NCBI GenBank assembly: GCA_963825055.1
Contig: CAWGSK010000013.1
Span: 64,001-128,000 of the forward strand
Reading direction: 5' to 3'
DNA length: 64,000 nucleotides
Origin: an uncultured Gemmatimonadales bacterium
GTDB lineage: Bacteria > Gemmatimonadota > Gemmatimonadetes > Gemmatimonadales > GWC2-71-9
Shown here: positions 13,828 to 62,619 of the stretch, in pieces
How positions within the stretch are numbered: the stretch's first letter is position 1
Layout of the letters: every line of letters starts with the position of its first letter
The notes under the pieces: model-generated
What the model was told of the DNA's origin: nothing
The model's database searches: none
Seen by the model: only the letters and a program-made list of their open reading frames with translations
Made by a program: the position numbers and the translations under genes

Positions 13828-13829
13828 CC

Positions 13830-13909
13830 GGTGAACGGTGAACGGTGAACGGGCCCTGCACGACCCCGTTCACCGTTTACCGCTTACCGTTTACCACTTG
13901 CCGTTCACC
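13830..13909. repeat. Bipartite heptamer inverted-repeat element between convergent genes
   Basis: (GGTGAAC)x3, 17-nt spacer, then six complementary units (GTTCACC/GTTTACC etc.); the last unit contains the stop codon of the right-hand gene. Confidence 0.9.
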
Positions 13910-14621
13910 GCTTCCGCGTCACCTTCCGCACCCACCCCCCGTATATCGGATTCGGCAGCAGGAAGAAGCGTGACCCGAAGGCTTCGTCGCGGCCGGCGTC
14001 CGGCAGCGGCTCGCCCTCCGCGGGGAAGTCGCCCATCGCATCACCCATGTAGACCAGCACTTTGACCTGTTTTCCGGGCCAGGCGCACGCGCCCTCGCCT
14101 CTGGCGATCTGTGCCCGCCGGCCGGCCTTGGTATCCGCGCTGTCCCGCTTGAGGCAGAGCAGATCGTCGGCCTTGAAGAGGCCGAAGGTCTCCAGGTTGT
14201 CGCGGGTGGCCTCGCGGGTGATGTCGTCCCGGTTGGTCACGTAGGCCACCTTCCCGCCCAGCGCGCGAACTCCGTCCACGAAGTCACGCACCCCCGGCAC
14301 CATCCCCGCCTCACGCCGCTCCACCCACGCCGTCCACGACGGATTGTCAAACGGCAGGTCGTACGCGAGCCTTTCGAGCTCATAGACCGAGTTGTCGAGC
14401 GTCGACTCGTCCACGTCCAGTACCACCCCCCACGGGGCCTTTCCCACGCTGTCCCGCCCCCGCCGGGCCGCCACCAGGGCCTGGCGGTAGACCTGCCGGG
14501 TCAGGGTCGCGTACTCCGCGGCATCCCGGACGTACTTCACGTCGCGGCCGGTCGTCACCTGGGCGGCCAGGACGCCGGGCACGGACATGAGACAGAACAG
14601 CAGCAGGGACAGCCGGCGCAT
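13905..14621 (-). CDS. Secreted HAD acid phosphatase / 5'-nucleotidase e(P4) family
   Basis: Signal peptide; VVLDVDESTLDNS, YVTNR, MGDAMGDF, LPNPIYG. Confidence 0.88.
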   Translation of the reverse strand: MRRLSLLLFCLMSVPGVLAAQVTTGRDVKYVRDAAEYATLTRQVYRQALVAARRGRDSVGKAPWGVVLDVDESTLDNSVYELERLAYDLPFDNPSWTAWVERREAGMVPGVRDFVDGVRALGGKVAYVTNRDDITREATRDNLETFGLFKADDLLCLKRDSADTKAGRRAQIARGEGACAWPGKQVKVLVYMGDAMGDFPAEGEPLPDAGRDEAFGSRFFLLPNPIYGGWVRKVTRKR

Positions 14622-45596: not shown

Positions 45597-46785
45597 GGCG
45601 TTCCTCGATAAGGTCGAACAGGACCCCGGCAACGTCCCGCTTCGACTGCAGCGGAAGGTCGCGCTCGCTCCCGTCGGGAAACAGGACGGTTACACGGTTC
45701 GTGTCGCCCTCGAAGCCCGCCCCCGGCTCCAGGGCATCATTGAAGACGATGAGGTCGAGCGACTTCTTCCTGAGCTTCTCCCGGGCCCGTTCCAGGCCGC
45801 CGCCGGTCTCCAGGGCAAAGCCCGCGGTGAACGCGCCCGCTTTCCGCCGGTCCCGGGTCATCTGCAAGATATCAGGGGTGGGGCCGAGCGTGAGGCTGAG
45901 GTCTCCGGCGGCGCGGGGCTGCTTGGCGGCGGCGGGATTGACCGGCCGGTAGTCGGCAGGCGCGGCTGCCATGACCGTCACATCCGCCGACCCGATCGCG
46001 GCCGCCACCGCGTGTGCCATCTCCTCCGTCGTCTCCACCCGGACCAGCTCGACCCCGACGGGCGGCGTCAGTTCCACGGGGCCGCTCACCAGTACCACGT
46101 CGGCGCCACGCCGCCAGGCTTCCTCAGCCAGCGCATAGCCCATCCGCCCGCTGGAGCGATTGGTGAAGATCCGGACCGGGTCCATCGCCTCGCGGGTCGG
46201 GCCGGCGGTGACCAGCACCCGCCGGCCCGCCAGGGCCCCCGGCGTTGTCATGAGCCGCGCCGCGTGCGCCAGGATCGTCCCGGGCTCGCTCATCCGGCCG
46301 GGCCGTTCCGAGGGCCCTTCGGCGAGCGCCCCGACCTCGGGCCCCACCACCGCCATGCCCAGCTGCCCAAGCCGTCGCAGGTTGGCCTGGGTGGCGGGGT
46401 GTGCGAACATGTCGTCATTCATGGCCGGGGCCAGGAGGACCGGGGCAGTCCGGGCGAGCAGGAGCGTCGTAAGGAAATCGTCGGCCAGGCCCTGGGCCGC
46501 GCGCGCCAGGAGGTGCGCGGTCGCGGGGGCGACGATAATCAGGTCAGGGTCGCGGGCGAGGCGGATGTGGTCGAGGGCGCGCCCGGGGCTCCAGAGGGAA
46601 TCGGCTACCGGCCGACCCGTCAGGGCCTCGAACGTGAGGGGCCGCACGAACTCGGCGGCCCCACGGGTAAGGATGACGTCCACGCGCGCCCCGGCCTCCG
46701 TAAGCCGGCGGGCGAGATGGCAACTCTTGTAGCTCGCGATCCCGCCCGACACGCCGAGGACGACGTGGCGGCCGGCCCAGGTCAC
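45586..46785 (-). CDS. coaBC: Bifunctional phosphopantothenoylcysteine decarboxylase/synthetase
   Basis: GGIASYK, APAMN, TAGPTRE..DPVR..NRSSG.MG, GFALET. Confidence 0.96.
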   Translation of the reverse strand: MTWAGRHVVLGVSGGIASYKSCHLARRLTEAGARVDVILTRGAAEFVRPLTFEALTGRPVADSLWSPGRALDHIRLARDPDLIIVAPATAHLLARAAQGLADDFLTTLLLARTAPVLLAPAMNDDMFAHPATQANLRRLGQLGMAVVGPEVGALAEGPSERPGRMSEPGTILAHAARLMTTPGALAGRRVLVTAGPTREAMDPVRIFTNRSSGRMGYALAEEAWRRGADVVLVSGPVELTPPVGVELVRVETTEEMAHAVAAAIGSADVTVMAAAPADYRPVNPAAAKQPRAAGDLSLTLGPTPDILQMTRDRRKAGAFTAGFALETGGGLERAREKLRKKSLDLIVFNDALEPGAGFEGDTNRVTVLFPDGSERDLPLQSKRDVAGVLFDLIEERLDR

Positions 46786-46988
46786 GCGTCCGTGCGCCGC
46801 CGCCGGATCAGCTTGTACGACAGATCGCCGGAGCAGAGCGCGTCCAGCGCGGTCGTGGTGAGCTTCTCCTCTGCCGCGTGGTCGTGGGGCAGCTCGTTCA
46901 GGTACCGGGCAAACCGGCCGGCAACCAGAACCGCGAGATACTTGTTGCCCGCCTCCTCGGCGGCTTCCATGGGCGTGTAGATGTGCAT
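46782..46988 (-). CDS. rpoZ: RNA polymerase omega subunit
   Basis: NKYLAVLVAG..AR; lies between gmk and coaBC. Confidence 0.85.
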   Translation of the reverse strand: MHIYTPMEAAEEAGNKYLAVLVAGRFARYLNELPHDHAAEEKLTTTALDALCSGDLSYKLIRRRRTDA

Positions 46989-47018
46989 GACTTCTCCCTC
47001 AGGGTGAACCGCCGTCGT

Positions 47019-47663
47019 TCAGGACGCCGGCAGGTGCTCCAGTTCCGTCTCCACTTCCTCGCGCAGCCGCGCGAGCGAAGCGGCCAGGTGCCGCTGCCGT
47101 GACGTCCGGAACGCCTCGGCGTCGATGATGGCGCCGGCGTGGGCGACGGCCAGCGTCAGGTCCTCGTTCACGAGCGTGTAGTCGTAGGCCATGGCCTCGG
47201 CCAGCTCCTCCCCGGCCCGCGCCAGTCGGCGGCGTACGGTCCCGGGGTGCTCGGTGTTCCGCGACAGCAACCGCCGCGCCAGTACCTTGCCCGTCGGCGG
47301 CAGCACGAAGATCCGCACGGCATCGGGATACTGCTCGCGCACCTGCCGCGCCCCGTGGATCTCGATGTCCAGGATCGGGTGATGCCCGCTTTCCATCACC
47401 CGGTCCAGCTCACTCCGCAGCGTGCCATAGAGGTGGCCGCCGTAGTCGGCCCACTCCACGAACTCTCCCGCGTCGCGACGACGCTCGAAGGCGTCCCGGT
47501 CCAGGAAGAAGTAGTCCCGGCCGTCCTGCTCGTACTCGCGGCGCGGCCGCGTCGTGGCGGAGACCGAGTACCCGAGGTCGCTGCGAACCTCCAGCAGTCG
47601 CCGGGCGATCGAGGTCTTGCCCCCGCCTGACGGGGAGGAGAGCACGACCAGGAACGGGCTCAC
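47019..47663 (-). CDS. gmk: Guanylate kinase
   Basis: SSPSGGGKT, SVSATTR.RR..E.DGRDYFF, YGT; GTG overlaps yicC stop. Confidence 0.96.
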   Translation of the reverse strand: MSPFLVVLSSPSGGGKTSIARRLLEVRSDLGYSVSATTRPRREYEQDGRDYFFLDRDAFERRRDAGEFVEWADYGGHLYGTLRSELDRVMESGHHPILDIEIHGARQVREQYPDAVRIFVLPPTGKVLARRLLSRNTEHPGTVRRRLARAGEELAEAMAYDYTLVNEDLTLAVAHAGAIIDAEAFRTSRQRHLAASLARLREEVETELEHLPAS

Positions 47664-48520
47664 TCCAGGTTTTCCAGCTGTTCCCGGAATTTTTCCAGTT
47701 CCCCTTTCATGACGATCACCTGGGCGGTGATACCGGCGTCGTTCGCCTTGGACCCCATCGTGTTCACCTCGCGCCCCATCTCCTGCGCCAGGAACCCGAG
47801 CTGCTTGCCGACCGGCCCCTTCCCCGCCAGGGCTTCCCGTGCCGCCGAGATGTGCGCGCCGAAGCGGACCAGTTCCTCGGTGATGTCCAGCTTGTCGGCC
47901 AGGAACGCGATCTCCTGTGCCACCCGGGTCTCGTCCGGACTCGCGCCATCCAGCAGTTCGCTCACCGCGGTGCGGAGCCGGTCCCGTTCGCGCACCACGC
48001 GATCCGGCGCCAGCCGCGCAATTTCCCCGGCCGCGCTCTCCAGCAGGTCCAGGCGCAGCCGAAGCTCCCCGGCCAGGGCGGCACCCTCCCGCTCCCGCAT
48101 CGCCTGACAGCCTGCCGCCGCCTCGCGCGCGGCCGGCTCCACGGCCTCCCAGGACACCTCGGGCGCTTCGGTCGGCGGCCCGGCCATCTCGGATTGCCGA
48201 AGGACCAGGGAAAGGTCGATGTCCCCGTCCAGCCGCAGCGCCTGCCGCAGTTCCCGGAGCCGGGCCACCACCGGGCGGGCACGCTCCACGTCCATGCCCA
48301 TCGCCACCCCGGTCTCCGGTGTCGAGGCCCAACGCCCCGAGACCGCGATATGGCCCCGCTCGAAGGCCCCCTTCAGGAACTCCCGGAACGGCGCCTCGAG
48401 GGCAGCCAGGTCCTGCGGGAGCTTGAGGGACAGGTTGAAGTACCGGTGGTTGACGGTCCGTATCTCGATCCGGATCCGCCCCCCGGCCACTTCCGCCTCC
48501 CCGGCCCCGAAGCCGGTCAT
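47660..48520 (-). CDS. yicC: YicC/YloC family endoribonuclease
   Basis: SMTGFG, VNHRY, DITEELVR, GKQLGFLAQEMGREVNTMGSK. Confidence 0.95.
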   Translation of the reverse strand: MTGFGAGEAEVAGGRIRIEIRTVNHRYFNLSLKLPQDLAALEAPFREFLKGAFERGHIAVSGRWASTPETGVAMGMDVERARPVVARLRELRQALRLDGDIDLSLVLRQSEMAGPPTEAPEVSWEAVEPAAREAAAGCQAMREREGAALAGELRLRLDLLESAAGEIARLAPDRVVRERDRLRTAVSELLDGASPDETRVAQEIAFLADKLDITEELVRFGAHISAAREALAGKGPVGKQLGFLAQEMGREVNTMGSKANDAGITAQVIVMKGELEKFREQLENLE

Positions 48521-48599
48521 GCTGGTGGGCAGAATCCCTCCATCCAGAAGTAGCCGTGGAAGTTAGCTGGCTTGGGGGGTGGGAGCAAATGGGAGATGG

Positions 48600-48637
48600 G
48601 TGACTAGTGACTAGTGACTGGTGACTAGTGACTAGTG
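48600..48637. repeat. Left heptamer array (GTGACTA)x5
   Basis: Directly visible; reverse complement of the 49128-49162 array with 1 mismatch over 35 bp. Confidence 0.95.
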
Positions 48638-48731
48638 CTTGAGTAGAGCGGGTCTGGTCAATATTCACTATTTGACACGACTCGCACCAAAAGGCCACGC
48701 CTGCGCTGCCCGGTTGGAACTATCCTCGACA

Positions 48732-49133
48732 ATGGTGCTGAAGCGAGTCAGGGACTTCCGGGATCTCGTTGTCTGGGACAGGTCCGTGGACTTTGCCGTC
48801 GCATGCTATCAGGCGACCCGGGGTTTCCCTCCGGAGGAAAGGTTTGGTCTCGTGGGGCAGATCAGGAGGTCAACGGCATCCGTGGCGGCGAATATCGCCG
48901 AGGGTTCGGGGAGGAGGACCACACGCGAACTCATCAACGCGCTGGGCATAGCCAATGGAGAATTGAAGGAAGCGGAGTCCCACCTGGAGATCGCCTGGCG
49001 GTTGGGGTATCTGGACAAAGCGCGTCTCGGACAGCTGCGGGAGATGGCCAGGGAAATCGGCAGGATGCTCACCGCACTTCGCCGTTCCCTCAATGGACGC
49101 TGCGGTCGCCAGTCCCACGTCACCGGCCACTAG
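48732..49133 (+). CDS. Four-helix-bundle protein (23S rRNA IVS-protein-like), 133 aa
   Basis: FRDLVVW, FPPEERFGLVGQIRRSTASVAANIAEGSGR, IANGELKE. Confidence 0.92.
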   Translation: MVLKRVRDFRDLVVWDRSVDFAVACYQATRGFPPEERFGLVGQIRRSTASVAANIAEGSGRRTTRELINALGIANGELKEAESHLEIAWRLGYLDKARLGQLREMAREIGRMLTALRRSLNGRCGRQSHVTGH

Positions 49134-49162
49134 TCACTAGTCACTAGTCACTAGTCACTAGT
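49128..49162. repeat. Right heptamer array (CACTAGT)x5
   Basis: Directly visible; contains the stop codons of both convergent genes; three degenerate units extend left to 49107. Confidence 0.95.
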
Positions 49163-50960
49163 TCCTGAACTCCCACCGTGCCCCGAACACGCTCCCGAAC
49201 CTGGGCAATGCGTACTCCGGGACGTAGGCGCGCTTTTCGCCCGACATGTTGAGACGGTCGTAGTAGAGCGAGAGGCTGCCGAGCTGGATCTCGATCAGGC
49301 CCCGGAAGTATGTGGCCCCTCCCAGGACGATGGGGCTCCCGGACGCCGTGCCGATGGTGCCGGTTCCCCAGGCCTCCATGCCAAGCTGGAGCTTGAGGTC
49401 GAAGATGCCGCTCGGGAAACTCCGCAGGAACTTCGAGCGGATGGTGGCCGTGGTGAAGGAGTGGGTGGGAGGGATGCCGTCCACCGTTGCACCAAGCGGG
49501 TCGCTGTACCAGCCCTCGAGAGTTATCCAGCTGAGCGGCGTGATCCGGGCGCGGACGGTGAGCCAGTCGGTCTCGGCGGCGGGACGCAGGGAGTCAACCA
49601 GGAGGTACGGGGTGAAGGGCCGCGCCTGGTAGGCGTGCGTCCGGCTGAGACCGGCCTCCAGCCCCAGGGGGCCGCTCTCCCAGGCGACCAGTGCCTGCAG
49701 GTCGCGCAGCGTCTGGCTGGTGTCGGACACGAGGGAGGGCTGGGCCACGACCTTCCCGATCCGCGCGTTGCCCGCCAGCACGACCCCGAACGGGAGGTTG
49801 AACCCGGCCCGCGCGCCGACCCACTGGCTGGTGCGGTCTCCGTCGTGACGCTGGTATCCGACTTCGCCACTCACGGTAAAACCCGCCACCCCGACGAGGC
49901 CGGCCCGCCCCCGCACGTCCCAGGGTGTCCAGCGCGAGCGGTGAAAGGCGGACCCGCCCACATGGAATCGCGGGGTGCGCCAGTCCGCCATCGCCCCCAC
50001 CTGGGTGACGGACTGCTCCACGCCCTCACCATCCCAGTGGCTCCGGCCGACCAGCAGTTCGAGTCGGGGGGCGGCCGGCGCAGCACGCCAGGAGACCCGC
50101 AGCTGGTTATCGCTCCGGGTGCCATCCAGCGGGAGGCCGATGGTGTCGCCCGCCGCCCGCTCGAACGCCTTTCGCTCCGGCCGCTGGCGGAGGCTCTGCA
50201 CCTGCACGCCGAACCCGTCCGATGGCACCCAGCTCCCCTGCAGCCAGTAGTTGGTCACGGTGGAGCCGCTGCTGAAGCCGCTCCCGGTAGGCGCGTCGAA
50301 GTAGTCGCCCGCGATGGCAAAGCCGAGCCCGTGCTCGAACCGGCGTTCAAGCCCGCCGGAGTACCGGGTGATGCTCCGGTCACCGCTCGCCACGCCCACC
50401 CACGAGCGCGCCGCACGGCGGTCATTCTGCCTGGTAAAGAGGTGTACACGCAGGAAGCCGGGCCACCGCTCCACCTCGATCCGCTCGATCAGGGAGAGCG
50501 CGAACAGCGATGGGTCGACGGCCAGCGTGTCCGTCCCGAGCGGGACGAACGGCAGGCCATCCACGACGTACTCGACCGACGAGGCCCCCCGCCCCTGATA
50601 GTCCGGATACTCCGGCCGGCCGAACCAGCCGCCGCGCCACAGGTAGACGCCGGGCACCCGCTGGAGGAGGTCACCCACGGTCTGGGCCATGGCCCAGTCG
50701 ATGGAATCACGGTTGATGACGATGCGGGAAAGTGGCGCGCGAGGACCCTCGATGCCGGATTGCGGCAGCACCGGCAGGACCATCGTCTCGGCTTTCTGCG
50801 CCTCGAGAAAGAGTGCCGTGCGGTCGACCGTGTCGGCGGGGATGGAATCGGCGGGAAGTGAATCGACGACCTGCGCGCCGGCGGACGACGCGGCCAGGCC
50901 GAGCAGCAGAAGGGCGAGGCCGGGGCCCCGCGCGCGATCAGCCCTGGCGCGCGAGGACAA
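49158..50960 (-). CDS. TonB-dependent-receptor-like outer-membrane protein (plug plus barrel); start uncertain
   Basis: Signal peptide; TVGDLLQRVPGV, YVVDG, IERIEV plug motifs; ends RWEFRN. Confidence 0.75.
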   Translation of the reverse strand: MSSRARADRARGPGLALLLLGLAASSAGAQVVDSLPADSIPADTVDRTALFLEAQKAETMVLPVLPQSGIEGPRAPLSRIVINRDSIDWAMAQTVGDLLQRVPGVYLWRGGWFGRPEYPDYQGRGASSVEYVVDGLPFVPLGTDTLAVDPSLFALSLIERIEVERWPGFLRVHLFTRQNDRRAARSWVGVASGDRSITRYSGGLERRFEHGLGFAIAGDYFDAPTGSGFSSGSTVTNYWLQGSWVPSDGFGVQVQSLRQRPERKAFERAAGDTIGLPLDGTRSDNQLRVSWRAAPAAPRLELLVGRSHWDGEGVEQSVTQVGAMADWRTPRFHVGGSAFHRSRWTPWDVRGRAGLVGVAGFTVSGEVGYQRHDGDRTSQWVGARAGFNLPFGVVLAGNARIGKVVAQPSLVSDTSQTLRDLQALVAWESGPLGLEAGLSRTHAYQARPFTPYLLVDSLRPAAETDWLTVRARITPLSWITLEGWYSDPLGATVDGIPPTHSFTTATIRSKFLRSFPSGIFDLKLQLGMEAWGTGTIGTASGSPIVLGGATYFRGLIEIQLGSLSLYYDRLNMSGEKRAYVPEYALPRFGSVFGARWEFRN

Positions 50961-52422
50961 ATTCGGTGAACAGGCGGACACCGCTCGCCGTGGGCCCCTT
51001 GACCATGCCGCCGCGTTCCCGGTCGGAATACGCCGTGCCGGCGATATCCAGGTGCGCCCACGGCATGTCTCCCACGAACTCGCGCAGGAACCACCCGGCC
51101 GTGATGGTGCCGGCCGGCCGGCCGCCGCTGTTCTTGATGTCGGCAATGTCGGACTTGATGAGTTCGCGGTAGTCGTCCCACAGGGGCAGTTGCCAGGCCC
51201 GCTCTCCCGCGCGCTCCCCCGCGGCCAGCACCTGGTCCACGACCGACTGGTCCGTCCCCATGACGCCGATGGCCGAGTGACCGAGCGCGATCACCACCGC
51301 GCCGGTGAGCGTCGCGGCGTCCAGCACGCAGGCAGGCTTGTACCGGCTGGCCCACGAGAGCGCATCCGCGAGGAGGAGGCGCCCCTCGGCATCCGTGTTG
51401 ACCACCTCGATGGTCTTGCCCGAATGCGCCCGGACGACGTCACCCGGCTTGTAGGCCGTGGCGGATGGCATGTTCTCGGCCGACGGCACGAGGCCGATCA
51501 CGTGCACCTTCGGCTTGAGCCGGCCCAGCGCCTCGAACGTGCCAAGCACGGCGGCGGCGCCGGACATGTCGAACTTCATCTCCTCCATGTTCGGCGCCGG
51601 CTTGATGGAGATGCCGCCTGTGTCGAAGGTGACACCCTTCCCCACCAGGACGACCGGCGCGCCCTTTGCGCCCCTGTATTCCAGCGCGATGAACCGCGGC
51701 TCGTTGGCACTCCCCTGCGCCACGGCCAGCAGCGCCCCCATCCCCTCCTTCTTCATGGCATCACGATCCAGCACCGTGACCTTGAATCCGTGCCGCTTTG
51801 CCAGGTCCCTGGCCGTGTCCGCCAGGAAAGCCGGCGTGCACATGTTGCCGGGCAGCATCTGCAGCCCCCGCGCGAACACGTGGCCCTCGCCGATGGCGGC
51901 CCCGCGCTCGAGCCCGGCCTCCACCTTCTTGTTCCCCTTCGGGACCAGGACCGCGAACCTCTCGAGGTCCACCGGCTTCTCCTCGGGTGGCTGCTTGAGC
52001 GCGTCGTACGCCCACGCGCCCTGCGCCAGCCCCTCGGCCATGGCCTGTCCGGCGCGCATCGGGCCGACCTGCTCCAGCAGTGCCGGATCCGGACAGAACA
52101 CCGCCTCCGCGACACCGGCCTTTGCCGCACGGCGGGACGCGACACTGGCGGCGGTCCGGAGTCGGGCGACGTCCACTTCCTCCACCTTGCCCATCCCCAC
52201 AACCAGAATCCGCTCGGCAGGACCGGGCGGATAGAGAATGGCAACGTCGTCCTTCCGACCCCGGAAGTCACGCGATCCAAGCAGCCGCGTCAGGGAACCG
52301 TCCGCCGCCTTGTCCAGTGCGGTGAAGGCCTTCGGCAACTCGCCCTCGGTGACGGCGAGGGCGAGGAAAGGAGTCTTGTGGCTCTCGGGGGTTCCGAACA
52401 CGATACGGCTGGCAAGGGACAT
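50938..52422 (-). CDS. pepA: Leucyl aminopeptidase (M17)
   Basis: GKGVTFDTGG.SIK, MKFDMSGAA, NTDAEGRL, ATLTGA, HLDIAG. Confidence 0.97.
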   Translation of the reverse strand: MSLASRIVFGTPESHKTPFLALAVTEGELPKAFTALDKAADGSLTRLLGSRDFRGRKDDVAILYPPGPAERILVVGMGKVEEVDVARLRTAASVASRRAAKAGVAEAVFCPDPALLEQVGPMRAGQAMAEGLAQGAWAYDALKQPPEEKPVDLERFAVLVPKGNKKVEAGLERGAAIGEGHVFARGLQMLPGNMCTPAFLADTARDLAKRHGFKVTVLDRDAMKKEGMGALLAVAQGSANEPRFIALEYRGAKGAPVVLVGKGVTFDTGGISIKPAPNMEEMKFDMSGAAAVLGTFEALGRLKPKVHVIGLVPSAENMPSATAYKPGDVVRAHSGKTIEVVNTDAEGRLLLADALSWASRYKPACVLDAATLTGAVVIALGHSAIGVMGTDQSVVDQVLAAGERAGERAWQLPLWDDYRELIKSDIADIKNSGGRPAGTITAGWFLREFVGDMPWAHLDIAGTAYSDRERGGMVKGPTASGVRLFTEFVLARQG

Positions 52423-54756: not shown

Positions 54757-55319
54757 GACATTTCCCCCGCCAGCAGTTCGCGCAGCCGCTCGCAGGCCCG
54801 CATCACGCGCATCTTGAGCGCGGACACGCCGGCGCCGGTCAACTCCGCCATCTCCTCATAGTTCATCCCTTCCACGTGCCGGAGCAGGAACGCCTGCCGG
54901 TGCGCCGGGGGCACACGATCGAGCGCGTCACCGATCGCCTCGCGCCACGCGAAGGACTCCGCCTGGTCCGGGGCCAGCCCGGGGACGTCAGGCGGGAGGT
55001 CCGAACCTTCGACCTGGTCGGTCCGGATCCGCCGTCGGCGCCGCGTCCGGCAGCGGTTGGCCAGGATGCGGAAGAACCACGCCCCGAACCGGTCCGGGTT
55101 CTCGCAGCGGGGGAGCGCCCGGTAGGCCCGGACGAGGGCGTCCTGCAGGGCCTCCTCAGCGTCCTCCGGGTTCCCGATCATGTGCGTGGCGTACCGGCCG
55201 TAGCGCACCCGGTAGCGCGCCACCAGGTGCCGATAGGCCTCGACCTCCCCTGCCAGCACGCGGCGTACGAGGTCGCCGTCGCTGGTGTCCACGTGAGAAA
55301 GACCTTCAAGGCGGGGCAT
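54753..55319 (-). CDS. ECF RNA polymerase sigma factor (start may be slightly downstream)
   Basis: DAEEALQDALVRAY, FGAWFFRILANRC, LRHVEGMNYEEMAELTG..ALKMRVMRA. Confidence 0.93.
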   Translation of the reverse strand: MPRLEGLSHVDTSDGDLVRRVLAGEVEAYRHLVARYRVRYGRYATHMIGNPEDAEEALQDALVRAYRALPRCENPDRFGAWFFRILANRCRTRRRRRIRTDQVEGSDLPPDVPGLAPDQAESFAWREAIGDALDRVPPAHRQAFLLRHVEGMNYEEMAELTGAGVSALKMRVMRACERLRELLAGEMS

Positions 55320-55401
55320 CGGTCACAGGGCTCCGGGGGCGGGATGCCTGGGAGACGCCGGACCCTGCCCCTCCCAACACCGCCCCGCCGGGCGGTCGGG
55401 G

Positions 55402-55461
55402 ACAGGCGGGAACAGGGCGGACGGGAAGAGGGCGGACGTGAATAGGACGGACGGGATGTCG
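55402..55461. repeat. Four degenerate 15-bp tandem repeats
   Basis: ACAGGCGGGAACAGG/GCGGACGGGAAGAGG/GCGGACGTGAATAGG/ACGGACGGGATGTCG. Confidence 0.55.
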
Positions 55462-55574
55462 GGTGTCGCCGAAGCTCGATCGTCCCGGAGCGGACGTCAG
55501 TGAGCGGTGGCATGCTCGCGATCTGGCCGTTGGACGCGTACGGGGGCCGCGGAGGGACGAGCGAGCAAGGCGGG

Positions 55575-58073
55575 CTAGAACTCCTTCTGAAGCAGCTCCA
55601 GGGCGCGTACCAGATCCGGCACCTCGTCCAGCACCGGGAGCAGAGGGTCTTCCTTCATACCGGTCAGGCGTTCGGGCATGGTTTCTATCGTGAATGCGGC
55701 AATCGAAAGGTCGGGGTTGACTTCGTCCCAGGTCAGCGGCGTTGAGACCGGGGCGCCGGGGAGCGGTCGGACGCTGTAGGGGGCCACCAGGAGCCGCCCG
55801 TGGCCGTTCTGGAGGAAGTCCACGTAGACCTTTCCCTTCCGGCGGGAGACCTGGCGGGTAATGGTCGCAATTTCCGGCAGGCGCTTCACGATCGCCCGGG
55901 CCAGCACCTCGCCGAGGGCGCGGGTCTGCTCGAACGTGAACTGGCGGCCAACCGGCACCAGGACGTGCAGGCCGCTCGAGCCGCTGGTCTTGATGTAGTT
56001 GGGCAGCGCGCACCGCTCGCAGAGGGCGTGCAGTTCGTTCGCGATGGCCACGACATCCCCGAAGGGCGCCTCCTTCGGGTCCAGGTCCAGGATGCACCAG
56101 TCGGGCCGCTCGAGCGTGCTGATCCGGCTACCCCAGACATGCAGCGGAATCGCCGCGCTGTTGGCGAGGTAGATGAGCGACGCGATGTCGTCACAGACGA
56201 AGTAGTCGATCTCGCGCTCGGCGTGTTCGCTCCACATCCGCTCGGTGCGAAGCCACTCCGGGATGTACTCCGGCGCGTCCTTCTGGAAGAAGCTCTTGCC
56301 GTCGATCCCGTCCGGATATCGCGTCAGGACCACCAGCCGGTCCTTGAGGAACGGCAGGACCCAGTCGGCCACGCCGCGGTAGTACGCGATGAGGTCGCCC
56401 TTGGTGTAGCCCTCCTCCGGCCAGAAGACCTTGTCCACGTTGGACAGCGGCACCTGGTCGGGGTCCATGGGCGGGATCTCCACGACGGGCAGTGGCGGCG
56501 GCTCGCCCTCCGACTCATCGTGCAGTTCGGCGATTTCCTTGTCATCCCGGAAGCGCTCGAACACCGGGTGGCGCAGCAGCCCTTCCTTCGTCCGCTCCTT
56601 GAAGCGGACCTGCGCCACGAATTCGGGTTCCACCCACGTCGTGTCCTTGAGCTTCGGCGCGCCCTCGCAGGGCGGATCCTTCCGGGCCGAGGCCTCGAGG
56701 CTGGCCCGGATCTCGCCGAGCCTCGCCGGGTCCAGCCCGCTGCCCGCCCGTCCCGCGTACACGAGCCGGCCGTCTCGGCGCTCAGCCAGGTGGAGGGCAC
56801 CAATGCCGTCCCGGCTCCCTTTCGGCTCGGTGAACCCGACCACCGCGAAGTCCCCGTTCTGGTCAGCCCGGATCTTGACCCAGTCGGCGCTCCGGCCCAT
56901 GTGGTACGGGCTGTCGGCCTTCTTCCCGACGATACCCTCCAGCCCGAGGGCCGTCACCTTCTCGTACAGGGCCTCCCCCAGTTCCTCGAAGTCCTCGACA
57001 TACCGGAGCGGCCCGACCGGCGGGAGTACGCGTCGGAGCAGCGCCTTCCGCTCGCGCAGGGGCATGCGTCGAAGGTCCCGCCCCTCCAGGGAGAGCAGGT
57101 CGAAGGCGAAATAGGTAACGGGGTTGCCCGCCGAGGCGACCGCGACGTCCCGCGGGCGGGAGAGGCGGGCGCGCTCCTGCAGCCGGTCGAAGCTCGGCAT
57201 GCCATCGGCGCCGAGTGCCACGACCTCGCCGTCCATCAGGAAATCGTGGAACGGCAGCGACTTCACGGCGAGCGCGACTTCGGGAAAGTTGGTGGCGGCG
57301 TCGTTTCCGTTCCGGGTGCGTACCACCACCTCGCCATCGCGGCGGCCGGCCAGGATCCGGTAGCCGTCCAGCTTGAGCTCGAAGAGCCACCCCTTCCGGG
57401 TGAAGGGGCTGTCGCGCTGCTCGGCCAGCATCGGGCTCACCTCGTCGGGAGCGGGCGCGGGGTCGGTCACGCCGTCGGCATCGAGTTCCTGCCGGAGGGC
57501 CTCGCCGGGATGCACGCCGTCCCGCAGCTCCTCCACGGTGAGGCCCGACAGGATGGACTGCGGCGGCACCGTACTGTCGTCCTGTTCGGTCCCCTCGGCT
57601 TTCTCCCGTATCAGGAGCCACTCGTTCTCGCCCTTCTTGAGCTTCACCAGCGTCCAGATGCCGCGCATCTTGTAGCCCCGCAGCTCGAACAGCAGCTTGC
57701 CCTTCTTCCATCCCTCCTCGATGTCCTCGAGCGGGAGCCACACCCCGCGGTCCCAGAGGATCACCGCGCCCGCGCCATAATTTCCCTCCGGGATCAGGCC
57801 CTCGAAGTCGCCGTAGTCGAGCGGGTGGTCCTCCACATGGACCGCCAGGCGCTTCTCCTTCGGGTCCAGGCTGGGCCCCTTCGGGACCGCCCACGACTTG
57901 AGCACCCCGTCCATCTCCAGCCGGAGGTCGTAGTGCAGCCGGCGGGCGGCGTGCTGCTGGATGACGAAGCGCTGGCCGCCCGGCCGGATGGCCTTGCCGG
58001 CGGGCTCCGGTGTGCGGCTGGGGGTGCGTTTCTCCCGGTAACGCTTGAGGGGGTCGGGTCCGGTTGCGGGCAT
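55575..58073 (-). CDS. ligD: DNA ligase D (phosphoesterase-ligase-polymerase)
   Basis: HAARRLHYDLRLE..SWAVPKGPS, ELKLDGYR, EGIVGK, RYPDG..FFQK, DLDP, KTSGSSGLH. Confidence 0.97.
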   Translation of the reverse strand: MPATGPDPLKRYREKRTPSRTPEPAGKAIRPGGQRFVIQQHAARRLHYDLRLEMDGVLKSWAVPKGPSLDPKEKRLAVHVEDHPLDYGDFEGLIPEGNYGAGAVILWDRGVWLPLEDIEEGWKKGKLLFELRGYKMRGIWTLVKLKKGENEWLLIREKAEGTEQDDSTVPPQSILSGLTVEELRDGVHPGEALRQELDADGVTDPAPAPDEVSPMLAEQRDSPFTRKGWLFELKLDGYRILAGRRDGEVVVRTRNGNDAATNFPEVALAVKSLPFHDFLMDGEVVALGADGMPSFDRLQERARLSRPRDVAVASAGNPVTYFAFDLLSLEGRDLRRMPLRERKALLRRVLPPVGPLRYVEDFEELGEALYEKVTALGLEGIVGKKADSPYHMGRSADWVKIRADQNGDFAVVGFTEPKGSRDGIGALHLAERRDGRLVYAGRAGSGLDPARLGEIRASLEASARKDPPCEGAPKLKDTTWVEPEFVAQVRFKERTKEGLLRHPVFERFRDDKEIAELHDESEGEPPPLPVVEIPPMDPDQVPLSNVDKVFWPEEGYTKGDLIAYYRGVADWVLPFLKDRLVVLTRYPDGIDGKSFFQKDAPEYIPEWLRTERMWSEHAEREIDYFVCDDIASLIYLANSAAIPLHVWGSRISTLERPDWCILDLDPKEAPFGDVVAIANELHALCERCALPNYIKTSGSSGLHVLVPVGRQFTFEQTRALGEVLARAIVKRLPEIATITRQVSRRKGKVYVDFLQNGHGRLLVAPYSVRPLPGAPVSTPLTWDEVNPDLSIAAFTIETMPERLTGMKEDPLLPVLDEVPDLVRALELLQKEF

Positions 58074-58099
58074 ACCGGCAATATCATACTGTACAGTCC

Positions 58100-58942
58100 A
58101 TGAGCGCACGTCCCATCGCCGCGGCCAACATCTCCTTCGGCCTGGTCTCGGTGCCGGTCAAGCTGTACTCCTCCTCGGAGTCCTCGGCCAGCATCTCGTT
58201 CAACTGGCTGCACAAGGAGTGCAGCTCGCGGCTCAAGCAGCAGTACATCTGCACCAATGACGACCAGGTCGTCAGCCGTGACGACATGGTCAAGGGCTAC
58301 GAGTTCGCCAAGGGTCAGTACGTCACCTTCACGCCCGAAGAGCTGAAGACCCTGGACGAAAAGGCCACCAACAGCATCGATGTCAGCGAGTTCGTCCCGC
58401 TCGAGGAGGTCGAGCGGCTCTATCTCGACAAGACCTACTATCTGGGGCCCGACAAGGGCGGCGACCGGGCCTACCGGCTGCTGGCGAAGGCGCTGGAGGA
58501 AACCGGCCGCGCGGCGGTGGGCCAGTACGCGGCCCGCGGGCGGCAGTACCTCATCCTCATCCGTCCGAAGAACGGCATGCTGGTGCTCGAGCAGTTGCAC
58601 TACGCCGACGAGATGCGCCCCGCCACCGAGGTCCCGCTGGAGGAGGGCGAGGTCAAGCCGACCGAGCTCGAACTCGCCAAGCAGCTCATCGAGCAGACCG
58701 CCACCGACGAGTTCCACCCGGAGCGTTACAAGGACACCGTGCGCGACCGCGTCATGGAAGCGATCCAGGGCAAGGTGGAGGGCGAGGAGATCACCGCCGC
58801 GCCCGCCGAGGAACCGCAGGCCAAGATCATCGACCTCATGGCCGCCCTCAAGGCCAGCCTCGCGAAGAAGGGCGAGGGAGCCGGCGAGGATGCTGAAGAG
58901 AAGCCGGCGAAGAAGAAGGCCGCGAAGAAGAAGGCGGGATGA
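58100..58942 (+). CDS. ku: Non-homologous end joining protein Ku
   Basis: ISFGLVSVPVKLY, VKGYE, YYLGP, AYRLL, IIDLMAALKASL, Lys-rich tail. Confidence 0.97.
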   Translation: MSARPIAAANISFGLVSVPVKLYSSSESSASISFNWLHKECSSRLKQQYICTNDDQVVSRDDMVKGYEFAKGQYVTFTPEELKTLDEKATNSIDVSEFVPLEEVERLYLDKTYYLGPDKGGDRAYRLLAKALEETGRAAVGQYAARGRQYLILIRPKNGMLVLEQLHYADEMRPATEVPLEEGEVKPTELELAKQLIEQTATDEFHPERYKDTVRDRVMEAIQGKVEGEEITAAPAEEPQAKIIDLMAALKASLAKKGEGAGEDAEEKPAKKKAAKKKAG

Positions 58943-58946
58943 CGGC

Positions 58947-59047
58947 AGTGAGTAGTGAGTAGTGAGTAGTGAGTAGTGTTTCGGAAGGTAGTTCCTCTCG
59001 CGCCGGCCTCACCGTAAAGCACTATTCACTAATCACCACTCACTCAT
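58947..59047. repeat. Bipartite heptamer element after ku
   Basis: (AGTGAGT)x4 at 58947-58974; degenerate complement CACTATT CACTAAT CACCACT CACTCAT at 59020-59047. Confidence 0.85.
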
Positions 59048-59061
59048 CCCCGGACCTGCTC

Positions 59062-60367
59062 TTGCACCGCTGCCTCTTCGTTATCGCGTTCCTCGCCGCC
59101 GCACCGTCCCTCCAGGCGCAGTCCCTGTCACCCGTAGAGCAGCGCATCACGGCGTCCGTCGATGCCGGCGTTCCGGCGTCGCTGGCGCTGCTGGAACGGG
59201 TCGTCAACATCAACAGCGGAACCATGAACCAGGACGGCGTGCGCAAGGTCGGCGCCGTGTTCCAGTCGGCCTTCGATTCGCTGGGGTTCGCGACGGAATG
59301 GAAGGACGGCGCGCGATGGGGACGGGCCGGTCACCTGGTGGCGACACGCACGGGAGACGGCCGTGGACCGAAGGTTCTCTTCATCGGGCACCTCGACACC
59401 GTCTTCGAACCCGACTCGCCGTTCCAGCGGTTCGAGCGCCTGGGGGCGGACAGCGCCCGCGGCCCGGGCACCACGGACATGAAGGGCGGCAACGTCGTCA
59501 TGCTGCTCGCGCTGCGGGCACTGCAGGACGCGAAGCTGCTGGATCGCATCCAGGTCACCGTGGTGCTCATGGGCGATGAAGAGGACAGCGGCGAGCCGCT
59601 CTCCCTCGCGCGGGCGGACCTGGTCAATGCCGCGAAATGGGCCGACGTTGCCATCGGGTTCGAGGATGGTGACGACGACCCGCGCACCGCCGTCATCGGG
59701 CGCCGGGGCGTGGCCGGCTGGACGCTCAGGACCTCGGGGACACCGTACCACAGCTCACAGATCTTCCAGCCCGAAGTCGGAAGCGGGGCCATCTTCGAGG
59801 CCGCCAGGATCCTGTCGGCGTTCCGTGACTCCCTCGCCGGCGAACCCAACCTCACGTTCAACCCCGGCGTGATTGTCGGCGGCACCACCATCACAGCTCG
59901 ATCCGGTCACCCAGCGCGGCACCGCGTTCGGCAAGAGCAACGTCGTCGCGGAGAGCACCGTCGTCACCGGCGACATCCGGACGCTGGCTCCCGCCCAGCT
60001 TGCCCGCGCCCGGGCGAGGATGCAGGCCATCGTCGCGCGACATTACCCGCGGACGGGGGCCACGATCGAGTTCGGCGAGGGCTATCCTCCCATGGCCCCG
60101 ACCGACGGCAACCGCCGGCTGCTGGCGATGATCGACCAGGCCAGCCGGGACCTCGGCGCCGGTCCCGTCACCGCGGTCGACCCGGCCCGGGCCGGCGCGG
60201 CTGACGTCTCCTTCGCCGCGGATTACGTCGACATGGCGGTGGACGGCATGGGGCTCCTCGGACGAGGCGGCCACACCGTGGAGGAAACAGCCGACCTCAC
60301 GACACTGCCTTTGCAGGCGAAGCGGGTGGCGGTGGCGCTGGCGAGGATAGCGAAGGACACGCGGTAG
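59062..60367 (+). pseudogene. Secreted M20 peptidase (carboxypeptidase G2-like) with a frameshift near 59896; possibly a sequencing error
   Basis: GHLDTVF, GPGTTDMKGG, GDEE; continues in another frame as GTAFGKSNVV...DGMG..GGHT. Confidence 0.85.
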
Positions 60368-60408
60368 GCAACAGGCAGTCGCACGCATACTCGAACAGGG
60401 GAGTTCCC

Positions 60409-60996
60409 ATGTTGAGCCGCACTCTCGCCGTGACGGTCCTTCTCGTGAGCGCGGCCGCGCCCATCCGCGCCCAGGACGCCTCCCCGACGCTGTCCGGGAC
60501 CGACACCGAGTTGCTCGACAATACCCTGGAACTCCGTTTCGGGTGCGACCCGATGGAACTGGCGGCGGCCGAAGGCTCGTCGTTCTCCGCCAGTATCGGC
60601 GGGGAGTCGGTCGAGGGGCACGCCGTCTGGGGCGTCGAGCGCGACGGCGACCTGATCCTGATACTGGGGAAGTTCGAGGGCACCGGCGGCCAGTGCCTGA
60701 TCTTGGCCAGCCACGACGGCCCGCCGGAAGTCGGCGCCTGGCCCGTGATCGCCCTCTCCCCCGCGCTCATGAACGGGGAACTCGAGGGACGCCACTTCGC
60801 CGGCGGCTGGTTCGCCAAGGTGGACACGATCGGTCACACGCTGGTTCCCGACTCGGGGACTCTCGTGTTCACATCCCTGGAAAGCGGGAAGCTCACGGGC
60901 TCGTTCATGCTGGATGGATGGACCGTCACCGAGGGGGAGCCGGAGACGGGGCGGCTCAGGATCGAGGGAACCTTCGTGGCGGTGGAGCCGAAGTAG
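60409..60996 (+). CDS. Hypothetical secreted beta-rich protein
   Basis: SD GGGGAG, signal peptide (IRAQ), typical codon bias. Confidence 0.7.
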   Translation: MLSRTLAVTVLLVSAAAPIRAQDASPTLSGTDTELLDNTLELRFGCDPMELAAAEGSSFSASIGGESVEGHAVWGVERDGDLILILGKFEGTGGQCLILASHDGPPEVGAWPVIALSPALMNGELEGRHFAGGWFAKVDTIGHTLVPDSGTLVFTSLESGKLTGSFMLDGWTVTEGEPETGRLRIEGTFVAVEPK

Positions 60997-61161
60997 GGCG
61001 GACAGCCGGACAGGCGGACAGGCGGACAGGCGGACAGGCGGACAGGCGGACAGGCGGACAGGCGGACAGGCGGACAGGCGGACAGGCGGACGATAAACTT
61101 TCCTTCCCGATACCCGATACCCGATACCCGATACCCGATCCCCGATCCCCGATCCCCGACT
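60997..61161. repeat. Composite arrays (GGCGGACA)x12 and (CCCGATA/C)x8 between convergent genes
   Basis: 60997-61092 begins immediately after a stop codon; 61106-61161 overlaps the TMEM175 stop. Confidence 0.95.
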
Positions 61162-61742
61162 ACCTCTCCGTCGCAACCGCCTCGATCCGCCGATCCGGCA
61201 CCAGCCATATCAGCGCTACGGCAATGTAGATCCCGCCCGCGATCGCGTGATGCACGAACGCAAGGGGGATCGCCACTACGTAGAGCCCGAGTGATAGCTT
61301 CCCCTTCACGTCCCCCCTGACCGCCCGCGCCAGCCGGGAATCCGGCCCCTGGTCATTCCGGATGATCGCGGTCTGGAGGATGGGGTAGGAGATCGCCGCG
61401 CAGAGCAGCACTACCCCGTATGCCGCCATCGGCAGGACTTGCGAAATGACTCTCCCCCATCCAGGTCGTCACGAACGGCACCAGCGAAAGCCAGAACAGC
61501 AGGTGCAGGTTGCTCCACAGGATCGGGCCGTTCACCCGCTCGGTGATCCGGAGCATGTGATGATGGTTGTTCCAGTAGATGCCGAGGAAGACGAAGCTCA
61601 GGACATAGATGAAGAGGCTGGGCCAGGACTCCCGGAAGTCCGCCCAGGCCGCCCCGTGGGGAATGTGCAGTTCCAGCACCATGATGGTGATGATGATGGC
61701 GATGACGCCGTCACTGAAGGCTTCGAGCCGTTCCTTGGTCAT
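61160..61742 (-). pseudogene. TMEM175-family potassium channel (DUF1211) with a frameshift near 61438; possibly a sequencing error
   Basis: RLEAFSDGVIAIIITIMVLEL, YWNNHHH; C-terminal half ends WLVPDRRIE in another frame. Confidence 0.88.
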
Positions 61743-61793
61743 GGGAGATGGAACATGATGCGCGGAAGCCCGTGAAGCAATGGAGAACGCCGG

Positions 61794-62282
61794 CTAGCGC
61801 CGGGCGGGGCAACTCCAGGAGGCGAAGACGGCGGCGTACCCGACCCTGGGAAGCACCCGCTCCGCCGTCATGGCGAGTCCGGCCAGGATCACCAGGAGCG
61901 CGAGCACGTGAGTCCACCAGATGCGTTGGGCCCACGAGGCGGTGGCCGCCCAGGTACCGGCCACGATCACCGACAGCACGGCCGCCAGATATCCGGCCAG
62001 CGGCCAGCCGCAGGCGCGGGCGTAGGGCCACTGCGTCATCGCGATGGCCAGCGTGCAGGCGAGCACGACGCGAAGCGCCAGCAGCCAGCGCTCGGAACGG
62101 GCGGGGGCGGTTCCGGCAACCGCGCCACGGTGTCCGCCGCCCCCGACTTTGGGCGTCGAGAGCCGGCGAGGCGCCGGGGTCGCGAAGATCATGTCGTCGG
62201 CGCCGGGATCACGCGAATCGCCCAGCTGCGCGAGCAGCCGGTCGACTTCATGCGACATCGGATCGTGGTGGGCATTGGCCAC
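61794..62282 (-). CDS. Hypothetical membrane protein (3 TM); start uncertain
   Basis: EVDRLLAQL, WPYARACG, VLPRVGYA..W.C; hydrophobic segments. Confidence 0.65.
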   Translation of the reverse strand: MANAHHDPMSHEVDRLLAQLGDSRDPGADDMIFATPAPRRLSTPKVGGGGHRGAVAGTAPARSERWLLALRVVLACTLAIAMTQWPYARACGWPLAGYLAAVLSVIVAGTWAATASWAQRIWWTHVLALLVILAGLAMTAERVLPRVGYAAVFASWSCPARR

Positions 62283-62476
62283 GGGGCCCCCGGAGAAGAA
62301 CTCGGCAAGGCGATGGTCGGTTATGGTGCGCATCCACCGTGCCAGCCGGCCTTCCCGCGCATAACCCGTGGTATCGACGTGGGATAGACATGCCAGACCC
62401 CGCGGGACGACTGACTCAGCCTTCGCAGTTCGCGCGGCCGGTCAGGTAATTCCTTCTGCAATCCAGTGCATGTGCC

Positions 62477-62555
62477 GGAACAAAAGGGAAGAGAGAACGA
62501 AGTGCGGCAGCCGCACCCGATTCCTCTTCCCTGTTGCCGCTTCCCTGTTCCCTGG
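62477..62555. repeat. Degenerate heptamer hairpin downstream of the tRNA 3' fragment
   Basis: Purine arm GGAACAA/AAGGGAA/GAGAGAA, inner stem GTGCGG-CAG-CCGCAC, pyrimidine arm of TTCCCTG units. Confidence 0.6.
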
Positions 62556-62562
62556 GTGTTCA

Positions 62563-62619
62563 TGCCCGAGGCGAGAGTCGAACTCGCATGGGGTTGCCCC
62601 CGGTGGATTTTGAGTCCAC
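62563..62619 (-). tRNA. Partial tRNA-Leu(CAA): anticodon arm to 3' end only (att-site remnant)
   Basis: Minus strand GTGGA-CTCAAAA-TCCAC, long variable arm GGGG-CAA-CCCC, GCGAG-TTCGACT-CTCGC, CTCGGGCA; D-arm and 5' acceptor strand absent. Confidence 0.9.

Follow-up and report, generated by a model that had tools for sequence, protein, structure and literature searches.

The window, meaning the whole 64,000-nucleotide stretch of DNA that was analysed, contains a single-gene cassette in which a four-helix-bundle (FHB) gene is enclosed by two inverted arrays of tandem heptamers. It sits between two host genes of the minus strand, and its features are as follows, in window coordinates.

47660..48520, minus strand: yicC (YicC/YloC endoribonuclease), host gene
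48590..48637, plus strand: left arm, a G-rich heptamer array (48600-48637; in-register unit ACTAGTG) with its outer inverted-repeat extension
48635..48643, plus strand: inner-edge motif, GTG then CTT, also found in gene-less arrays of the cassette's class
48638..48731, plus strand: internal leader of 94 nt, with TATCCT as predicted -10 box of a putatively leaderless transcript
48732..49133, plus strand: FHB gene (TIGR02436 / PF05635), 133 aa, Xcc0516/Avd fold
48906..48935, plus strand: codons 59-68, helix 2-3 loop, a candidate specificity region, suggested only
49105..49175, plus strand: right arm, with three degenerate units in the ORF end, five exact C-rich units (49128-49162) and the outer extension
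49158..51146, minus strand: 662-aa host gene with weak TonB-receptor matches below the cut-off

From the letters alone, the cassette had been described as a 563-bp unit with almost fully complementary arms, and the array coordinates together with in-register pairing confirm this. The left array (48600-48637) comprises 5.4 copies of GTGACTA, one unit having a final G, and the right array (49128-49162) comprises 5.0 copies of CACTAGT, all exact. When 48603-48637 is set against 49128-49162 in register, 34 of the 35 positions pair, and the remaining one would be a G-U on the plus strand. With the outer extension, the inverted repeat spans 48 nt at 88% (48590-48637 / 49128-49175), while the 3' end of the ORF (49105-49127) holds three further degenerate right-arm units. 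These repeats are not a product of chance, because period 7 has 215 runs of at least three exact copies in this genome and period 8 has 81, far exceeding the 12, 6, 1 and 0 found at the same copy threshold for control periods 5, 6, 10 and 11 (periods 4 and 9 gave 103 and 42).

The composition of the cassette also sets it apart. Its GC content is 57-62% against 65-77% in the flanking DNA, as had been visible by eye, and the FHB gene has a GC3 of 0.75 against a median of 0.86 for called genes, a set itself filtered for high GC3. The observation that this is the sole plus-strand gene in about 40 kb likewise stands, since ORF calls over 17389-58064, an interval with a few uncalled gaps, show no other. 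Both stop codons, that of the FHB gene and that of its convergent neighbour, lie inside the right arm. The earlier proposal that the arm supplies both holds for their position and fails for the neighbour's stop, which is native: the TonB-like gene ends AAC-TAG in 11 of the 24 relatives where it adjoins yicC. Because the neighbour natively ends Asn-stop, the arm overlaps the native gene end by 5 nt and brings no new stop.

Comparison with related genomes identifies the cassette as an insertion. From 40 relatives searched, 29 yicC loci were obtained, and the FHB gene is absent from all 29, giving the empty sites upstream of yicC that the sequence-only reading had proposed to look for. The TonB-receptor-like gene lies directly upstream of yicC in 24 of them, with a gap of about 40-200 nt; another gene lies there in 4 and a contig edge in 1. 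Because no relative carries the gene and the two neighbours are kept adjacent, the cassette is an insertion that separates the neighbour's stop codon from the DNA 5' of yicC; about 70 nt of that native DNA still lies between yicC and the left arm. Against the relatives' alleles, none of them close, only the 5-nt overlap with the native gene end is seen. YicC points to a Gemmatimonadales host, being 61% identical to that of one genome of this order, 46% to that of another Gemmatimonadota genome and 33-40% to those of three other phyla. Both neighbours are protein-coding genes, not rRNA, and the FHB gene is antisense to both. One relative (L015) has, between the same two host genes, an inverted pair that encloses no gene and is built of another heptamer, and another has a heptamer run 5' of yicC.

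The FHB protein and its loci in other genomes

The encoded protein belongs firmly to its family, with profile scores of 116.9 bits against a cut-off of 24 and 115.3 bits against a cut-off of 33.8 (TIGR02436 / PF05635). Sequence comparison matches it to Xcc0516 (2GSC; E 4e-18) and BT_0352 (2RLD; E 3e-10). An AlphaFold model built from a 40-sequence alignment has four helices (pLDDT 89.7) and superposes on 2GSC with Z 20.0, rmsd 0.7-0.8 over 113 aligned residues and TM 0.83. The same model matches the Avd protein of diversity-generating retroelements (DGR; 4DWL) with Z 14.2 and rmsd 1.5 over 106 aligned residues, so the predicted fold agrees with the kinship to Avd claimed earlier. Structural neighbours beyond 2GSC, 2RLD and Avd are not clear, and no enzyme or catalytic fold is among them.

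By analogy with 2GSC and 2RLD, which have five chains each, and with Avd, the FHB protein is likely a five-subunit ring. The two pentamers Xcc0516 and BT_0352 resemble it in sequence and predicted fold, and the parts of the literature examined describe no link between them and repeats. Avd (4DWL, 8UB7), whose fold it shares (Z about 14), is pentameric and binds RNA: flipped-out bases are inserted in crevices between its five protomers, and the FHB protein has the same residues as Avd uses for this insertion (bioRxiv 10.1101/2023.10.23.563531). Unlike DGR Avd, the cassette protein scores below the Avd cut-off (NF033474, 30.5 bits against 80), its neighbours are yicC and the TonB-like gene, and the genome, 87% complete, has no match to the reverse transcriptase profile PF00078. 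A retro-mechanism with a local reverse transcriptase was rejected on this last result.

Repeat arms are a general property of FHB genes. All eight FHB paralogues in this genome (G000) lie between their own matched inverted 7- or 8-mer arrays by inspection, and the automatic arm threshold passes six of them; the flanking arrays expected at paralogues are thus present in 8/8. Vertical conservation at the yicC locus (0/29) and paralogues lacking repeats (none of eight), the two outcomes that would speak against the sequence-only reading, were not found. Elsewhere, a first set of 217 loci includes 209 with full flanks, and inverted arms occur in 135 of these, against 6 with direct arms and 8 in a swapped-flank control. 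A second set of 116 loci, 96 of them usable, gives inverted arms in 66, direct in 11 and swapped in 4. About two thirds of the 305 FHB loci in both sets together are armed, parts of this sample being biased to one peptide word and many Rhizobiales sharing a single site. The upstream unit is G-rich in 166/202 loci, and the heptamers can be aligned loosely, having T in 77-80% at position 3 and G at position 5. Within one family, genomes carry 0 to 13 FHB genes, and two loci lie on viral contigs. The cassette is an ordinary member of a widespread family, and no description of the class was found in the openly accessible main texts searched. A chance or assembly origin of the architecture has negligible probability: the assembly does mix strain variants, yet hundreds of loci in different phyla show the same arrangement, and the controls are low.

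Cyanobacterial plasmids provide a further group, in which arms occur in 11 of 16 loci taken from 41 matches. Three of these plasmid loci (L362, L368, L371) hold a repeat-armed FHB gene between cas6 and cas4 or between cas10 and cmr3. At three others on Nostoc plasmids (L360, L363, L364), the FHB gene lies 3' of an ISL3-type sequence with no clear upstream arm, and among these an identical FHB protein occurs on two PCC 7120 plasmids. Within this genome, matched pairs that bear an ORF and are spaced by at least 400 nt enclose an FHB gene in 4 of 5 cases. At G000:C12:673068-674035, matched 8-mer arms surround a membrane-protein-like ORF, with no FHB gene.

Full cassettes change position slowly. 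Both flanks are shared in 43/44 pairs at 80% identity or more, in 21/35 at 70-80% and in 297/632 at 60-70%, these pairs not being independent; the most similar pair of paralogues in this genome has 76% amino-acid identity. Because 43 of the 44 close pairs keep both flanks, 'mobile' applies to the full cassette only on long timescales. The repeat unit, in turn, follows the protein. Among pairs with 70-80% protein identity, 86% have units that differ by at most one mismatch, against 2-3% at 30-50%, and the clades with TT-AGC and AGTCAG units retain them in hosts of different phyla and GC content.

A residue-to-base code, with the helix 2-3 loop as specificity region, is only suggested by these alignments. 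Its signal gathers at residues 59-68, 72, 75 and 79 and in helix 4. Column 62 ranks first in 66 disjoint close pairs, its partial r of 0.36 being below the 95% null maximum of 0.39, and a Mantel scan places columns 59, 64 and 75 at z 4-6, yet below the family-wise null. A mutual-information signal faded on dereplication. The leave-distant-neighbour test favours columns 59-68, 72, 75 and 79, which were chosen on the same data (2.79 versus 3.09 +/- 0.08 for random sets); in a held-out test on 11 cyanobacterial loci, the 13 candidate columns gave a mean unit distance of 2.58 against 2.55 for the whole protein, inside the random-set range. Failing the family-wise and held-out tests, the code was not accepted as established.

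Orientation, leader and RNase III

The leader between the left arm and the FHB gene has a recurrent design in this lineage. TATCCT occupies 48721-48726 and ends 5 nt 5' of the FHB ATG, which had suggested a leaderless mRNA. A -10-like motif 5-7 nt 5' of the start is found in 80/140 lineage loci against 9/140 at a control offset, in 2/63 loci elsewhere and in 107/1284 cases genome-wide, a pattern consistent with the leaderless reading. The upstream arm stands at least 70 nt from the core in 90/95 loci of this lineage against 4/62 elsewhere. No full promoter came out of a sigma-70 scan of 48400-48800, a scan of the left part of the cassette found no intrinsic terminator, and Rfam gave no match over 46000-49100.

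Orientation differs between lineages as well. Among 148 loci tallied in host families f1-f8, 110 have both flanks called: in 47 the FHB gene is antisense to each of its neighbours, in 37 it is convergent with the downstream gene, in 10 divergent from the upstream gene, and in 16 co-directional. The named other phyla have 50 co-directional loci of 60, out of 79 tallied; for f10, the downstream gene runs in the direction of the FHB gene in 8/8 called. The strand caller was right in 174/182 calls, as validated in G000 only. A leaderless promoter of its own is predicted to drive transcription of the cassette, which in this lineage mostly faces against a neighbouring host gene.

With the profiles TIGR02191 and PF14622, RNase III was found in 0/100 genomes of f1-f8 and not in G000 (87% complete), against 19/20 genomes of f9-f12. 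In the four relatives with RNase III that were examined, the gene follows fabF. The fab operon of G000 is assembled mid-contig without it (fabF at G000:C13:47644-48885), other genes occupying the place expected for RNase III, and an unfiltered profile search of G000 for RNase III returned nothing. A report of RNase III loss in Gemmatimonadetes was not found in the openly accessible main texts searched. The loss may have caused the switch in orientation and leader, a proposal held as a hypothesis because it concerns one host lineage and because the protein tree, with 7 host-class changes, has 1 supported independent pair for the switch.

These results bear on the idea, also raised by the sequence-only reading, that the cassette is an excisable RNA element. 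In this explanation the stem formed by the arms would be cut by a double-strand RNase and the cassette removed from the host transcript like a 23S rRNA intervening sequence (IVS). The S23p IVS of Coxiella burnetii is 428-444 nt long, with complementary ends and variable-copy tandem heptamers before the ORF, and is excised by RNase III in vitro; the same source cites ORF-bearing IVSs in Leptospira 23S rRNA (PMC4990558). The cassette (about 570 nt) shares with these IVSs the protein family, a similar size and a terminal stem, here of 35-48 bp, enclosing an S23p ORF, and such removal would suit the co-directional cassettes of other phyla (50/60). Unlike them, it lies between protein-coding genes, is antisense to both, belongs to a host lineage without detectable RNase III, carries an internal leaderless-type promoter motif and resides in a genome with hundreds of gene-less derivatives. 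Because RNase III was not found in the lineage, excision of the IVS type is unlikely here; G-U pairs among the mismatches of the arms favour neither strand (279 vs 243, p 0.13), and exact-run units differ by at least 3 bases or in period in 32/59 close pairs. An mRNA intervening sequence is thus highly improbable, and the RNase III-excised element proposed from the sequence is not supported. What is new here is a variant without RNase III, antisense and with a leaderless-type promoter motif.

Gene-less arrays and their turnover

Abundant arrays depend on the FHB gene. Defined as at least 15 matches of a four-unit pattern, which misses 8-mers, they occur among 157 genomes in 42/108 that bear FHB genes and in 1/49 that do not; within the host family the counts are 33/75 and 0/15, and in family f2 alone the difference (6/23 vs 0/5) is not significant. 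The p-values are overstated because the genomes are kin. A backward-pattern control was dropped, being unusable as a null because real arrays also match it, and a local control gave 1-3 matches against 180. The FHB gene is not sufficient for arrays, because 66/108 FHB-bearing genomes have few pattern matches. Seven f10 genomes (G084, G086, G088, G092, G094, G096, G097) have 1-6 FHB genes and at most 1 array match each, and RNase III is present in six of the seven.

This genome holds 420 exact 7/8-mer runs in 279 sites, or 370 arrays in 254 sites once 14 contigs duplicating others and the cassette arms are removed. The arrays match the units of the genome's own cassettes: at most one mismatch separates 239/370 (65%) from one of its 8 cassette units, whereas 500 random sets drawn from other cassettes averaged 24% and never exceeded 52%. 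The other 131/370 have no own cassette within one mismatch in a genome that is 87% complete. They are also polar. In the 254 de-duplicated sites, a G-arm followed by a C-arm is found 53 times and the reverse order 0 times; G-arms follow stop codons in 161 cases against 18, and C-arms precede starts in 73 against 21. Convergent spacers make up 75/247 intergenic sites, compared with 338/2387 adjacent gene pairs. The exact runs showed no fixed offset from stop codons: in 146 cases, with genes called crudely, they begin anywhere between -24 and +69 nt. Arrays of this cassette's class often share its inner edge, 44 of the 119 A-N-T-R-G-T-G runs listed being continued by CTT. Intergenic 7/8-mer arrays of this system in the window include:

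13829..13913: gene-less inverted GGTGAAC-class pair, directly 3' of a stop codon
35651..35827: compound gene-less element with an 8-mer, a 7-mer and an opposite 7-mer arm; copy numbers differ in the variant copy of this region on contig C27
58947..59048: gene-less inverted pair of the cassette's heptamer class (AGTAGTG / ATTAGTG units)
60997..61164: gene-less hybrid of an 8-mer arm and an unrelated 7-mer arm, between two stop codons; missing on contig C28
62523-62554: further intergenic 7/8-mer array

Beside the last of these, 62560-62625 resembles part of a tRNA by eye and adjoins lower-GC DNA; it is possibly an attachment-site remnant, and ARAGORN called no tRNA in 55000-64000.

Gene-less elements turn over fast. 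In strain-variant copies of one region, they differ in copy number, type or presence, and the 158-nt element at 60997, present on C13, is missing from the variant copy on C28, with no target duplication in this one pair examined. Two short-spacer families each recur at 5 separate loci, and in one family the spacer lies between arms that do not match. The strain variants in the assembly amount to about 343 kb of duplicated-region alignments at 72-100% identity, in contig groups that include C12/C6/C21/C24/C25/C26, C13/C27/C28, C9/C31/C32/C33 and C8/C14. The earlier description of a mobile cassette without a transposase is therefore right as to an inserted, repeat-armed element with no transposase, and needs amending as to tempo, in that full cassettes mostly stay and their gene-less derivatives change fast.

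One alternative, which appears somewhat unlikely, makes the FHB protein a domesticated host RNA-binding regulator and the arrays its operator sites at gene ends, serving autoregulation and a regulon. Sites would arise by slippage and gene conversion and be kept by selection, and the protein would move no DNA. Mostly intact ORFs that have long resided at their sites fit this view, as do arrays that match own paralogues and adjoin stop and start codons, and heptamers before start codons have been proposed as translational control (MacGregor 2015, PMC4679880). It accounts poorly for an FHB gene number of 0 to 13 within one family, for strain variants that differ in element presence or type at one site, for arms polar towards the spacer regardless of gene direction, and for short spacers that recur at separate loci like copied units.

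Other repeat systems offer a second comparison. In REP/BIME sequences with their RAYT, and in MITEs, a gene is flanked by its own repeats and many gene-less repeats lie between genes. Unlike these, the cassette has no HUH or DDE enzyme, its single ORF being FHB, and its arms are tandem 7/8-mers. No target duplication accompanies the one gene-less empty/filled pair examined. Near-identical copies exist for short gene-less spacers and not for full cassettes (closest 76% aa). The genome does contain two Y1 (HUH) transposase-like ORFs, at G000:C3:21452-21799 and C20:60213-60473, with no exact 7/8-mer array beside either.

That the FHB gene is passive cargo of such arrays, moved in trans by an HUH transposase or by recombination between arrays, with deletion leaving the arms behind, is unlikely. 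The Y1 ORFs, the lack of a catalytic fold among FHB structural neighbours, the one non-FHB ORF between matched arms and the three Nostoc plasmid loci following ISL3-type sequence are on its side. Against it, FHB is the enclosed gene in 4/5 ORF-bearing matched pairs spaced by at least 400 nt, arrays are scarce in FHB-less genomes, units follow protein clades, and neither Y1 ORF adjoins a listed exact array. A protein that binds or propagates the repeats, as first suggested from the sequence, may be inferred from the way arrays track FHB presence, own units and protein lineage.

Comparable arrays without an assigned gene are known from other bacteria. They include GGGAATC in Xanthomonas and GGGGA(C/T)T in Nostoc, with 70 convergent inverted heptamer pairs in Xcc (Rehm 2015, PMC4692102), and the TAACTGA arrays of Beggiatoaceae, for which it was suggested that a repeat-binding protein might be the mobile element (MacGregor 2015, PMC4679880). 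They resemble the gene-less arrays here as intergenic heptamer runs with convergent inverted pairs, and those of Beggiatoa are oriented towards start codons as in this genome. The main texts of these two papers name no FHB gene; their supplements list repeat neighbours and could show one.

A candidate mechanism and its implications

The reading preferred here, held tentatively and at slightly less than an even chance, is that the cassette is an inserted selfish module of a gene and its cognate repeat, in which the FHB protein reads its heptamer and drives slow copying of the cassette and faster gene-less spread. A pentameric ring would recognise its own tandem heptamer, with one unit per subunit crevice; Avd-like base binding between protomers in five crevices would give a geometry suited to tandem units. 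Binding would be sequence-specific and directed to the single-stranded array. The protein would then drive slow copying of the full cassette and a much faster spread of gene-less repeat pairs to intergenic sites beside stop codons. Because the FHB protein has no known catalytic fold, host enzymes are invoked for integration, and the insertion chemistry would be borrowed from host repair or recombination. An 844-aa ORF at 55575-58109 (minus strand) looks like a DNA ligase D, and the divergent gene at 58064-58942 (plus strand), with a lysine-rich tail, may be Ku; such end-joining enzymes could be host helpers of insertion.

A more general form of this proposal is doubtful. It would make PF05635 proteins the specificity and mobility factors of transposase-free selfish elements, with a pentamer that reads its cognate 7-/8-mer through the helix 2-3 loop and seeds polar pairs beside stops, which would explain the bacterial excess of heptamers. 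In Gemmatimonadetes, RNase III loss would have freed antisense insertion of elements with their own leaderless promoters.

The selfish-module reading links the FHB family, whose function is unknown and whose pentameric structures are solved, with the unexplained polar heptamer arrays of Xanthomonas, Nostoc and Beggiatoaceae. Each FHB protein gains a predicted ligand, its own flanking unit, which makes the idea testable on the eight paralogues of this genome. If it is true, small rings with different 7-8-nt specificities would serve as a scaffold for programmable nucleic-acid binding. RNase III appears to be missing from an entire class of bacteria abundant in soil, which bears independently on rRNA maturation and antisense tolerance. 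The reading may also explain the FHB genes reported inside cas operons (PMC3936711) as insertions, not Cas components.
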